Shown here: positions 14,235 to 15,936 of the stretch, piece by piece | Layout of the letters: every line of letters starts with the position of its first letter | Numbering within the stretch: position 1 is the first letter of the stretch | DNA from: a virus | UHGV virus genome: UHGV-0180729 | DNA length: 44,771 nucleotides | Direction: 5' to 3' (one strand) | Notes under the pieces: model-generated | Told to the model about the DNA's origin: nothing | What the model saw: only the letters and a program-made list of their open reading frames with translations | Databases searched by the model: none | Translations under genes and position numbers: made by a program

Positions 14235-14263
14235 TTGACTATTACCCTCGACCCTATTATATT
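14235..14263 (+). promoter_or_regulatory. Sigma70-like promoter (TTGACT-N17-TATATT) for the small-gene island
   Basis: TTGACTattaccctcgaccctatTATATT. Confidence 0.55.
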
Positions 14264-14296
14264 TACTCCATCGACAACGAGAACGGAGTAGAGAAG

Positions 14297-14446
14297 ATGA
14301 AAATCACAGATATTGAAGCATTCGAAGACGCGCAACTGATGGCACGTATTGCCGTTAGCAACCTGAGCAACAGTATTCCGGCGGACGCTTTCTGGTTCGC
14401 TGCGATGCAGACACTGAAAGCAGCTTATACAGGAGAGAAGAAATGA
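14297..14446 (+). CDS. Small hypothetical protein a (49 aa)
   Basis: MKITDIEAFEDAQLMARIAVSNLSNSIPADAFWFAAMQTLKAAYTGEKK; stop overlaps next ATG within GGAGAGAAGAAATGA. Confidence 0.45.
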   Translation: MKITDIEAFEDAQLMARIAVSNLSNSIPADAFWFAAMQTLKAAYTGEKK

Positions 14447-14598
14447 GCGAACAAGGTCAAGTAAGCCAACCGTTACGAGTAGGCCGTAAAGTAAGTCACA
14501 CCCCGTTCCCGACACGTGAGGAACTGATGAAACGTAACAGTTTCCCGGGGCCGGACAAGAACAAGTATCTCAATCGCATGTGGGGAGAGAAGAAATGA
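14443..14598 (+). CDS. Small hypothetical protein b (51 aa)
   Basis: MSEQGQVSQPLRVGRKVSHTPFPTREELMKRNSFPGPDKNKYLNRMWGEKK; same 15-nt junction sequence at its 3' end. Confidence 0.45.
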   Translation: MSEQGQVSQPLRVGRKVSHTPFPTREELMKRNSFPGPDKNKYLNRMWGEKK

Positions 14599-14783
14599 CT
14601 GACCGTGAATACGAAAAGATGATGGTTGAGGCCGTTAACAACGGCGGCGTAGATATCAGCCACGTGATGCACGTCCTGAATACTAAAATCGCGGTAGCCG
14701 AGCAAATGGTCGAGTCGCTTTACGAGACCCGCCGTGAACTGATTAACCGCTTCAACCTGAACAAAGGTGACAACAATGCCTAA
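14595..14783 (+). CDS. Small hypothetical protein c (62 aa)
   Basis: ATG at 14595; MTDREYEKMMVEAVNNGG... Confidence 0.5.
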   Translation: MTDREYEKMMVEAVNNGGVDISHVMHVLNTKIAVAEQMVESLYETRRELINRFNLNKGDNNA

Positions 14784-14979
14784 AATCACAATCGCATCAC
14801 TTGAGCGCCGTATTCTGGTGCTTGAGTCGGAGAAACAGACGTTAGGCGGGCAACTGTCGATTAATGGTGAGTTTCAACTGGAGGCGTTTAGGATTCTCCT
14901 GGGAAAATTGAAGGAAGAAGAGCAGAAGCTACTTCTTTCTCCTGAGTTTGATTACGGTGTTGATGATGAAAGCGCCTGA
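14776..14979 (+). CDS. Small hypothetical protein d (67 aa, predicted coiled coil)
   Basis: MPKITIASLERRILVLESEKQTLGGQL...; overlaps neighbours. Confidence 0.5.
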   Translation: MPKITIASLERRILVLESEKQTLGGQLSINGEFQLEAFRILLGKLKEEEQKLLLSPEFDYGVDDESA

Positions 14980-15148
14980 ACCAGTAGTAATTGATGGTGT
15001 CCTGTGGAAACCCTACTCGGTTAACCACATCGACGCCGACGGGAAGAAGTTCAGCTTCTACATTTTTGCAATTAGCCGGGAGCACGCCGCCTGTGTGGTC
15101 GATGATATACGTGAGACGGCGTGGCTTGGTGATGAGATAGTGGGGTGA
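14963..15148 (+). CDS. Small hypothetical protein e (61 aa)
   Basis: ATG at 14963 (MMKAPEPVVIDGVLWKPY...). Confidence 0.45.
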   Translation: MMKAPEPVVIDGVLWKPYSVNHIDADGKKFSFYIFAISREHAACVVDDIRETAWLGDEIVG

Positions 15149-15152
15149 GAGT

Positions 15153-15323
15153 ATGTTCAGTGACATCAACGCAGCAATCGAAGAAGCAATCTGGCGTCGT
15201 TACAACGGCGAGCAACAACGGCATTTCTGCCTGGTGCAACGCGGCAACATGATTGCCGTAGTGCAGGACCGCGATAACAAATATCCGAATGCGATGTGGA
15301 CAACGAGGAATTTCTTAGGATGA
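15153..15323 (+). CDS. Small hypothetical protein f (56 aa)
   Basis: MFSDINAAIEEAIWRRYNGEQQRHFCLVQRGN...; stop overlaps next ATG (ATGA). Confidence 0.45.
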   Translation: MFSDINAAIEEAIWRRYNGEQQRHFCLVQRGNMIAVVQDRDNKYPNAMWTTRNFLG

Positions 15324-15517
15324 AACAGTTCTTTATCACCTTCAACTGGGCCGATGGTACAGGTGCCAACGGATTCGGCAACTGTATCAGGTCACCACTC
15401 AACGGCGATAAATTCACACATAAAGAGCTTAAAAATATAGAGCTCGACATTGCACACATTATGTCTTGTGATGTTAAGGTTATAGTATTGAATATCGTGG
15501 AGATTGCGCCAGAATGA
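15320..15517 (+). CDS. Small hypothetical protein g (65 aa)
   Basis: MKQFFITFNWADGTGANGFGNCIRSPLNGDKF... Confidence 0.5.
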   Translation: MKQFFITFNWADGTGANGFGNCIRSPLNGDKFTHKELKNIELDIAHIMSCDVKVIVLNIVEIAPE

Positions 15518-15750
15518 TTACCAGCATTCCGAACCTGATTAAAGAATTCGGCACGATGGCTGAGACATGCCGACAAACCGGCATAAACGAAATGACTATT
15601 GCGAAGTACAGCAAAGACACTGATTGTGAGCGCCACGTAATTTATAACAACCGTCTGATGACGCACGTTAAGACAAGCCCGGTGTTATTCACTCGCCGTG
15701 GTATCACTAAAACTGAACAACGCATTGCTAAAGAGGAGGGTGGGGAATGA
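15514..15750 (+). CDS. Small protein h with possible helix-turn-helix (78 aa)
   Basis: FGTMAETCRQTGINEMTIAKYSK resembles an HTH segment. Confidence 0.45.
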   Translation: MITSIPNLIKEFGTMAETCRQTGINEMTIAKYSKDTDCERHVIYNNRLMTHVKTSPVLFTRRGITKTEQRIAKEEGGE

Positions 15751-15902
15751 AAAAGTTAACTGTCTACTGGAAGACAGGTGCTACGTCAGAACTCGATGTT
15801 TTCAGCGTAACGTGGTATGAGAAGTTCTGGTGCGCCGAAACATTCAACGGTGAAGTTAGAATCCCTATTGCGCTGGTAGACGGCGGCGATATAACCGAAT
15901 AA
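15747..15902 (+). CDS. Small hypothetical protein i (51 aa)
   Basis: MKKLTVYWKTGATSELDVFSVTWYEKFWCAETFNGEVRIPIALVDGGDITE; ATGA overlap upstream; terminator follows. Confidence 0.45.
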   Translation: MKKLTVYWKTGATSELDVFSVTWYEKFWCAETFNGEVRIPIALVDGGDITE

Positions 15903-15914
15903 GCCTCACACTAC

Positions 15915-15936
15915 GCCCTCTACGGAGGGCTTTTCT
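15915..15936 (+). terminator. Rho-independent terminator
   Basis: Stem GCCCTC/GAGGGC with TACG loop followed by TTTTCT. Confidence 0.6.

Follow-up and report, generated by a model that had tools for sequence, protein, structure and literature searches.

Mosaic arrays of tiny genes with boundaries at the gene junctions are classic in lambdoid and many other phages. The nin regions of lambda and P22 differ in content in a mosaic fashion between relatives, and lytic growth does not require the regions in which ninH, ninZ and orf56 of these phages lie (the nin5 deletion, the P22 ea region). Morons, reportedly described for lambdoid phages by Juhala and colleagues in 2000 and by Hendrix, bring a promoter and a terminator of their own to a place between two modules. 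Here we analyse a related locus, hereafter the island, at positions 14235-15936 of the virus genome UHGV-0180729, where a first-pass annotation made from the sequence alone had pointed out nine tiny open reading frames (ORFs, here O1 to O9) and proposed that they encode host-takeover or anti-defence factors. The 44,771-bp stretch as a whole (the window) is a complete Kagunavirus genome (subfamily Guernseyvirinae, K1G-like E. coli siphophages). Of the 361 phage records that match the island DNA, nearly all come from Kagunavirus or Jerseyvirus, and the best reaches 89% coverage at 91.7% identity; the structural half of the genome is at most about 90% identical to deposited genomes over 68% of its length, which points to a new species-level relative rather than a re-sequenced isolate. 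With a probability of roughly 0.6, we read the island as the fixed accessory-gene bay of the Guernseyvirinae: an operon of non-enzymatic small proteins, transcribed by host polymerase, insulated by terminators and translated by coupling, which would correspond to the nin and ea arrays of lambdoid phages and in which a conserved backbone alternates with exchangeable slots.

Comparing the island with the nin regions of lambda and P22 revealed the same build of small ORFs (many below 80 amino acids, aa, in nin) on one strand with overlapping stop and start codons (lambda and P22 annotation), and two families, NinH (O8) and NinZ (O3), are shared with P22 nin, in which ninH and ninZ are adjacent. 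The two differ in setting and transcription, since nin, between the replication genes and the Q/23 antiterminator, belongs to the pR transcript, made by N-antiterminated polymerase that passes through internal terminators, whereas the island lies between the endolysin gene and terS with a sigma70 promoter of its own and terminators on both sides. The nin enzymes NinB/Orf, NinG/Rap, the NinI phosphatase and NinC are absent from the island, and the nin phages are temperate whereas the window phage is virulent. The early-left arrays (lambda exo-xis, P22 ea/orf56, HK97 gp37-gp38) share DUF2737 with O2; there, in the leftward early operon, the DUF2737 genes of P22 and HK140 follow the recombination genes as part of a run of small overlapping ORFs of unknown function. 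These arrays, however, belong to the pL operon of temperate phages under repressor and N control, and have one gene family in common with the island. Like the island, a lambdoid moron has its own promoter and terminator between two modules, and P22 similarly has the non-essential rha, orf80 and orf59c between its lysis genes and gene 3; but a moron is present or absent among relatives as a whole unit, whereas the island frame occurs in every relative examined and only the inner ORFs vary, and these variable ORFs have no promoters of their own. Finally, the left-end array of Gamaleyavirus carries O6 homologues in a chain of overlapping tiny ORFs as in the island, although it belongs to an unrelated phage family with transcription by a virion RNA polymerase and shares one family with the island. 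New here is the description, for this phage group, of a fixed frame, slots and a portable junction; the island does not amount to a new kind of system.

On the proposed reading, host RNA polymerase would start at the near-consensus sigma70 promoter, the nine genes would be read as one mRNA, and transcription would stop at the downstream terminator, ahead of a separately promoted terS. Translation would be chained, with seven of the eight following start codons overlapping the previous stop and the Shine-Dalgarno (SD) sequence placed inside the last codons of the upstream gene. Whole ORFs are gained, lost and swapped, mostly at ATGA junctions. The proteins, among them a divergent Fis-like NinH, a NinZ homologue and a DUF2737 protein, would act as small binders or regulators tuning host or phage DNA transactions, and the variable slots would carry exchangeable adaptive cargo that may include counter-defence genes.

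The frame, composed of the promoter and the two terminators, was found in all 44 loci containing the region (the window, two relatives from GenBank and 41 contigs of IMG/VR found by way of terS), and variation was confined to the internal ORFs. Promoter and terminator calls are sequence predictions backed by conservation. The promoter TTGACT-N17-TATATT noted in the first-pass annotation was recovered by a consensus scan with 10 of 12 matches, and its hexamers are identical in 42 of the 42 loci that reach far enough upstream, among them those of Jerseyvirus, with proteins just ~65-80% identical; transcription would begin near 14270. The distance from promoter to first gene is constant at ~62 nt, even in loci with an extra gene ahead of O1. 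The flanking intrinsic terminators claimed alongside the promoter were found as well, both conserved, the downstream one by a terminator scan and the upstream one by folding, the scan having missed the latter because its loop is 9 nt long. The upstream hairpin, an 8-bp stem followed by T7 (-13.8 kcal/mol), is the sole structure in its segment and is kept in 19 of 19 distinct relatives, with 99.3% of cells paired and one compensatory CG->UA pair in Jerseyvirus; it probably also closes a short conserved transcript begun at a promoter at 14114 (see below). The downstream terminator is kept in all loci, and its stem is compensated in Jerseyvirus (GCCCGC...GCGGGC).

Between these signals, nine plus-strand ORFs of 49-78 aa span 14297-15902 (Table 1), and a gene caller that chains ORFs by length and SD sequence returned exactly the same nine. 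All nine are real genes under purifying selection: in window-versus-relative comparisons the ratio of nonsynonymous to synonymous substitution rates (dN/dS) is 0.05-0.34 across the set, at a synonymous divergence of 0.29-0.81. The stop and start codons said to overlap almost throughout do so at seven of the eight junctions, as ATGA at five (O1/O2, O2/O3, O6/O7, O7/O8 and O8/O9), over 8 nt at O3/O4 and over 14 or 17 nt at O4/O5, and a 4-nt gap separates O5 from O6. The position between lysis and packaging genes likewise held, as did the absence of enzymatic domains from the nine proteins and the presence of a single helix-turn-helix (HTH) protein, O8.

Table 1. Features of the island and its flanking genes in the window.
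Feature	Position	Strand	Size or sequence	Remarks
Endolysin gene	13409-13891			upstream flank of the island; Pfam Phage_lysozyme
Upstream intrinsic terminator	14182..14212	+	stem ATCCCGGC / GCCGGGAT, 9-nt loop, T run	predicted left boundary
Island promoter	14235..14263	+	TTGACT-N17-TATATT	predicted; consensus scan, 10/12 matches
O1	14297-14446	+	49 aa	
Junction copy 1	14432..14446	+	GGAGAGAAGAAATGA	SD (GGAG), 7-nt spacer, O2 ATG overlapping O1 TGA
O2	14443-14598	+	51 aa	
Junction copy 2	14584..14598	+	same 15-mer	O2/O3 boundary
O3	14595-14783	+	62 aa	
O4	14776-14979	+	67 aa	
O5	14963-15148 (or start 14966)	+	60-61 aa	
O6	15153-15323	+	56 aa	
O7	15320-15517	+	65 aa	
O8	15514-15750	+	78 aa	
O9	15747-15902	+	51 aa	
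Downstream intrinsic terminator	15915..15934	+	GCCCTC-TACG-GAGGGC-TTTT	predicted right boundary; terminator scan
terS	16031-16543			downstream flank of the island; named from relatives' annotation
terL	downstream, packaging side			Terminase_6N/6C

The first-pass annotation had proposed looking among close relatives for genes present in some and absent from others, and such variation proved to be extensive, with 42 different architectures among the 44 loci between the conserved promoter and terminators. The backbone order is O1-O2-O3-(O4)-O5-O6-O8. Practically all loci of Kagunavirus and Jerseyvirus that extend far enough upstream contain O1, O2, O3 and O8; O5 and O6 were found in almost all Kagunavirus loci and are missing from Jerseyvirus. 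Defined slots behind the promoter and behind O1, O2, O5, O6 and O8 hold about 38 further families; in the window phage the slot-fillers are O7 and O9. Cargo in the corresponding bay of relatives includes an ASCH/DUF3850 domain protein, a DUF7336 protein and a MarR-like protein, and several small cargo proteins look membrane-spanning when their sequences are judged by eye.

Three backbone proteins could be linked to families of lambdoid phages. O2 is a DUF2737 protein, passing the gathering threshold of Pfam PF10930 (38.9 bits against a cutoff of 25, E = 8e-10); its family hidden Markov model (HMM) matches HK140 gp37 (annotated as similar to HK97 gp38) at 1e-13 and P22 orf56 at 1e-11, its dN/dS is 0.20 and it occurs in 529 phage records. 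The family HMM of O3 (phrog_1402, dN/dS 0.24) matches P22 NinZ at 3.1e-9 with 26% identity, and the two share the C-terminal motif L-E-R(R/E)EL(I/V)NR--LNK-G; for NinZ no Pfam model exists against which O3 could be scored. Our literature search on DUF2737 and NinZ found no functional studies of either.

O8 scored 24.2 bits against PF06322 (NinH), under the gathering cutoff of 29.8 (E = 3.2e-5), and relatives at 82-95% identity bear a precomputed PF06322 assignment. The O8 family HMM, searched among 1255 six-frame ORFs, matched lambda NinH at 2.5e-7 and P22 NinH at 1.4e-6, and the alignment runs over the HTH and the C-terminal strands with 30-32% identity. AlphaFold2 predicted a three-helix N-terminal HTH followed by a beta-hairpin, with a predicted local distance difference test (pLDDT) score of 77-87 over residues 1-40, which fits the published NinH model. 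Lambda NinH forms a Fis-like dimer able to bind and bend DNA, and mutations have been used to map its key residues (Chakraborti et al. 2020, PMC7166090); the R30A and R56A substitutions abolished binding or lowered it at least 1000-fold (PMC7166090). O8 keeps the DNA-contacting T32 and K35 of lambda NinH and its dimerisation residues H45 and H55, the latter aligning with O8 H41 and H51, which are invariant in the Guernseyvirinae clade. The DNA-contact set as a whole is not conserved, since O8 has N18->T, R30->E, R34->A and R56->V; among 18 clade members the R30->E replacement is invariant, R34 is replaced by A or S, and R56 by V or T. O8 also differs from lambda NinH in a 20-residue C-terminal extension and in two invariant cysteines, C19 and C38. 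O8 thus appears to be a NinH-family protein that has diverged and in which DNA binding may have been changed or lost, given the missing contact residues and the score below the Pfam threshold; the invariant cysteines, together with an invariant E26 at the position of lambda R30, suggest that the function in this clade has diverged from DNA binding.

The other proteins gave fewer leads. O1, the first backbone gene (predicted helical, phrog_2180 at 2e-26, dN/dS 0.11), is present in 44 of 44 loci and in 636 phage records, almost all from Guernseyvirinae and some from Seszw-like Salmonella phages. O4 (phrog_9023 at 1.5e-30, dN/dS 0.27, 35 of 44 loci) has a conserved N-terminal part and a C-terminus that varies (49-99 aa in relatives), is missing from some relatives and looks like a coiled coil by eye. 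O5 is a Kagunavirus-restricted orphan with the lowest dN/dS of the set, 0.05, and 34 clusters in 5.8 billion proteins; its predicted beta3-alpha fold (pLDDT 85) had no significant structural match, Foldseek against BFVD returning uncharacterised viral proteins only. Deep homologue searches for O5 and O8 gave close relatives only, and the alignments for structure prediction are therefore shallow. Searches of PDB sequences with O5, O6, O7 and O8 gave nothing below E = 0.2. O6 (phrog_5407, dN/dS 0.17) is a backbone gene with homologues of 41-49% identity in the N4-like Gamaleyavirus, such as PhAPEC7 gp05 (L177 1804-1977), in the left-end chain of tiny ORFs. O7 is a variable cassette set precisely between the ATGA junctions of O6 and O8, with both insertion breakpoints at ATGA in three relatives; it was present at 4 of the 44 loci, and of 50,697 phage records 34 contain it, a single one with more than 60% identity. 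O7 had no Pfam match at E <=1 and no PHROG match, and the label 'DUF4969' that GenBank gives to its homologue in phage JSSK01 was rejected for lack of such a match. O9, the variable last cassette (predicted beta-rich, phrog_22569, dN/dS 0.12, 5 of 44 loci), was found in 20 phage records, 18 from Kagunavirus and two entries of the T1-like Shigella phage Sd1 with 55% identity. The sharing of O6 with Gamaleyavirus and of O9 with Sd1 shows single small genes evidently moving between unrelated virulent coliphage groups. O1, O4, O7 and O9 had no informative match in Pfam, PHROG and NCBIfam (and, for O7, PDB), and with O5 they are to be regarded as orphans on the present searches; some GenBank records already give individual island members the label NinH or DUF2737. 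NCBIfam, Rfam and tRNA scans returned nothing relevant.

Several points weigh against the operon being a counterpart of nin and ea arrays. The functions of all nine proteins are inferred only. O1, O2, O3 and O8 are conserved subfamily-wide (636, 529 and 518 records for O1, O2 and O8) and may be core genes. The island lies between lysis and packaging genes and not, like nin, beside replication genes and an antiterminator. O8 fails the Pfam cutoff and has none of the lambda residues R30, R34 and R56, so that a Fis-like mechanism may not carry over. Finally, in an RNA-seq time course of the close relative vB_Eco_K1B4, which annotates five of these genes (019-023), the NinH homologue (gene 023) is expressed during infection and peaks in the 'middle' class with structural and lysis genes, so that at least this gene is transcribed in a relative; an early timing like that of nin is not apparent there, the bins of at least 30 min being too coarse to tell early from late (PMC12645636).

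These observations bear on a second explanation, possible but in our judgement improbable, that the island is a core regulatory or late module in which the backbone is needed for the phage programme, for example with the NinH-like HTH protein as a transcription regulator or as a DNA-bending packaging cofactor near terS, and only O7 and O9 are accessory. The presence of O1, O2, O3 and O8 in essentially every Kagunavirus and Jerseyvirus genome examined, at dN/dS of 0.1-0.24, agrees with it, as do the peak of the K1B4 NinH homologue with structural genes and the place of the island directly upstream of terS, where an intervening promoter and inverted repeat are also invariant. On the other side stand the general knowledge that lambda and P22 ninH, ninZ and orf56 lie in dispensable regions, the absence of O5 and O6 from Jerseyvirus despite the same overall genome plan, and the conserved terminator that insulates the unit from terS.

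The proposal of the first-pass annotation, an operon of host-takeover or anti-defence factors, stood in part. Gene content that varies so strongly between close relatives usually marks accessory or host-interaction cargo, homologues of four members occur in early accessory arrays of unrelated phages, and a first-slot cassette in two relatives (L141, at 2122-2355, and L167) encodes a 77-aa acidic protein similar to phrog_14587 'anti-restriction protein' (1.5e-20; category moron / host takeover). None of the nine proteins, though, matched a known anti-defence or host-takeover protein in Pfam, PHROG and NCBIfam, in PDB for O5-O8 or in the structure search with O5, a dedicated anti-defence library not having been searched. 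Homology to known regulatory families, the outcome that the annotation itself had set against its reading, was found for some members (O8 with NinH, O2 with DUF2737, O3 with NinZ). The stronger form of the proposal, that most of the nine inhibit bacterial immunity such as restriction-modification or abortive infection and are expressed at once from a strong host-type promoter, seems unlikely to us. It would account for the very fast turnover of gene content between near-identical phages, for ORFs that are tiny, devoid of domains and partly orphan, for the sporadic O7 and O9 (34 and 20 of the 50,697 phage records) and for the phrog_14587 cassette, a label that reflects the annotation of family members and not tested activity. 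Yet none of the nine falls in an annotated anti-defence family, and six or seven of them form a conserved backbone under strong purifying selection, unlike arms-race cargo; near-universal O1, O2, O3 and O8, with O5 and O6 in Kagunavirus, look more like conserved regulators. Kagunavirus isolates, moreover, are reported to be highly sensitive to restriction-modification and variably so to the Old system (bioRxiv 10.1101/2024.09.12.612763). As a hypothesis, anti-defence or host takeover fits best for O7, O9 and the variable slots.

To return to the coupled operon with exchangeable slots, the junctions indicate how its genes may have been exchanged. The 15-mer GGAGAGAAGAAATGA, said to be reused at two consecutive junctions, indeed occurs exactly twice in the window, flanking O2, and still twice when two mismatches are allowed; the chance expectation is 0.05, and no shuffle of 100 held two or more copies. 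O1 and O2 both end in GEKK, as had been noted, and have no BLASTP similarity to each other. The shared tail arises because the SD sequence of the next gene sits within the last codons of the upstream gene, and GEKK is best seen as a by-product of a portable SD-ATGA coupling junction rather than a protein motif. GGAGAGAAGAAATGA is the usual 3' end of O1 (37 junctions), whichever of at least ten different genes comes next, and a minority allele at the 3' end of O2 (7 in 44 loci, 6 besides the window), where most O2 genes end in GGAGAGCGTAAAGAATGA. In all, it ends four unrelated families (O1, O2, f21 and f22) and precedes 13 different genes, and two copies of the junction were found in 10 of 44 loci. 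The inserted cassettes f21 and f22 of relatives carry 18-20 nt identical to the 3' end of O1, which gives them direct-repeat flanks.

The 44 loci have 359 gene junctions, 299 of them with an overlap of some kind, including 184 of the ATGA type. For 50 insertion polymorphisms, breakpoints were placed where homology to the most similar 'empty' locus ends; the left break lay within 2 nt of the upstream stop codon in 35 of 50, and the right break usually at the downstream start codon, with typically 4-9 nt shared around ATGA. From these positions it follows that the cassettes are whole ORFs swapped from ATGA to ATGA, by which coupling would be preserved.

The exact 15-nt junction found twice around one gene, the direct repeats flanking f21 and f22 and the 10 loci with two junction copies could also mean that the repeat is a dedicated recombination site and the island a cassette-capture system analogous to an integron. 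We consider this quite improbable. Most cassette boundaries share just the 4-9 nt around ATGA and not the 15-mer, no attC-like structured site was found in or beside the island, and no recombinase domain was found among its nine proteins by Pfam and PHROG, the rest of the genome not having been scanned. When IMG/VR was scanned with the exact 15-mer, at least 120 contigs matched, almost all with a single hit and otherwise unconnected to the phage group, which is about the chance level and gives no signal of a special site. Microhomology-mediated or illegitimate recombination, with selection for intact coupled ORFs, explains the pattern equally well.

That the ORFs arose by chance in non-coding spacer DNA, as their shortness and the lack of a match outside this phage group for five of them might suggest, is effectively refuted by dN/dS values well below 1 for all nine at the synonymous divergence given above, by PHROG matches for eight of the nine (every family labelled 'unknown function'), by SD-like sequences ahead of most starts and by a frame and order kept in more than 40 loci. 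Four antisense ORFs of 93-166 aa in the island were rejected as genes, being broken or truncated in most relatives.

A bolder extension of the coupled-operon reading can be offered tentatively. The invariant frame of a small-RNA-like unit, promoter, ATGA-linked ORFs and terminator might serve as a plug-and-play cassette platform, in which SD-ATGA junctions, and especially the portable 15-20-nt GCAGGAGAGAAGAAATGA linker, are preferred crossover points, the O7 and O9 slots hold new counter-defence or host-takeover proteins, and a CU-rich small RNA regulates the SD-rich junctions. If so, any ORF could be dropped into the frame and be translated at once by coupling. Phages of the genera Kagunavirus and Jerseyvirus are widely isolated for use in therapy and biocontrol against E. 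coli and Salmonella, and one member, CM001, is a chassis for engineered phages (BASEL paper). As a locus that tolerates gene gain and loss, with exact boundaries and its own predicted promoter and terminator, the island would be a natural site for payload insertion and the first place to seek differences between isolates in host range or defence evasion. As targets for small-protein screens it offers the sporadic cargo O7 and O9, the constrained orphan O5 and O8, a NinH variant without the canonical DNA-contact arginines.

Just upstream of the island, a conserved unannotated unit runs from promoter to terminator at 14114-14212 (+), with TTGACA-N17-GATACT, a CU-rich body and a hairpin followed by a T run. 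The body, unstructured and ~33 nt long (UUAAAUCACCUCCUGUUCCAUCCCUCUGCUCUCCAG), contains AUCACCUCCU, which we take to resemble the 3' end of 16S rRNA, that is, the anti-SD sequence. TTGACAC and GATAC of this unit are invariant in 36 loci, and identity over the unit reaches at least 95% in 111 of 121 Kagunavirus records, which exceeds the conservation of the neighbouring genes; its CUCCUG and CAUCCCUCU motifs and the terminator with the compensatory pair persist in Jerseyvirus. No Rfam match was found for it, and when the phage genome was searched for targets of the candidate RNA, complementarities of 9-11 nt were found at about the estimated chance level. The unit could encode a small regulatory RNA of ~65 nt, or it could represent the terminator and 3' untranslated region (UTR) of the lysis operon or a rut-like C-rich tract, and it may be a more interesting find than the island itself.

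In most relatives the -35 element of the 14114-type promoter overlaps the endolysin stop codon. In the window an extra ~220 bp (13892-14113, +) with its own hairpin terminator at ~13947-13985 separates the two, an insert shared by L172 and L158 and partly by L140; its segment 13985-14113 folded no better than shuffled sequence (z = 0.58). Further upstream, a 194-aa ORF at 12828-13412 (+) with a Pfam HNH_3 match (2.7e-13) lies between the holin and endolysin genes and is apparently a homing-endonuclease-like gene; in phage fBC-Eco01 the endolysin gene directly follows the holin gene, without an HNH ORF between them.

Between the island terminator and terS, a promoter-like TGTACA-N18-TATAAT at 15936-15965 (+) is followed by the inverted repeat AGACGCG-TAGGG-CGCGTCT at 15972-15990, both kept in all relatives and slightly diverged in Jerseyvirus. 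A 14-nt imperfect inverted repeat also pairs 15950-15963 with the SD region of terS at 16015-16028. The elements at 15936-16030 could be an operator, a structure in the 5' UTR or a packaging-related element.

The first-pass annotation had called the island the densest pool of unknown function in the genome, which needs qualifying, as a second array at ~8706-11554 (+), upstream of the lysis genes, holds at least 12 small ORFs of 47-138 aa, many of them abutting or overlapping. The promoter scan for sigma70 consensus matches of at least 10/12 gave four plus-strand sites in the whole 44.8-kb genome, three of which (14114, 14235 and 15936) cluster within 1.85 kb around the island (14114-15965). 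The two best matches in the genome (11/12) lie on the minus strand, with -35 elements near 5140 and 42977, and are presumably early promoters.

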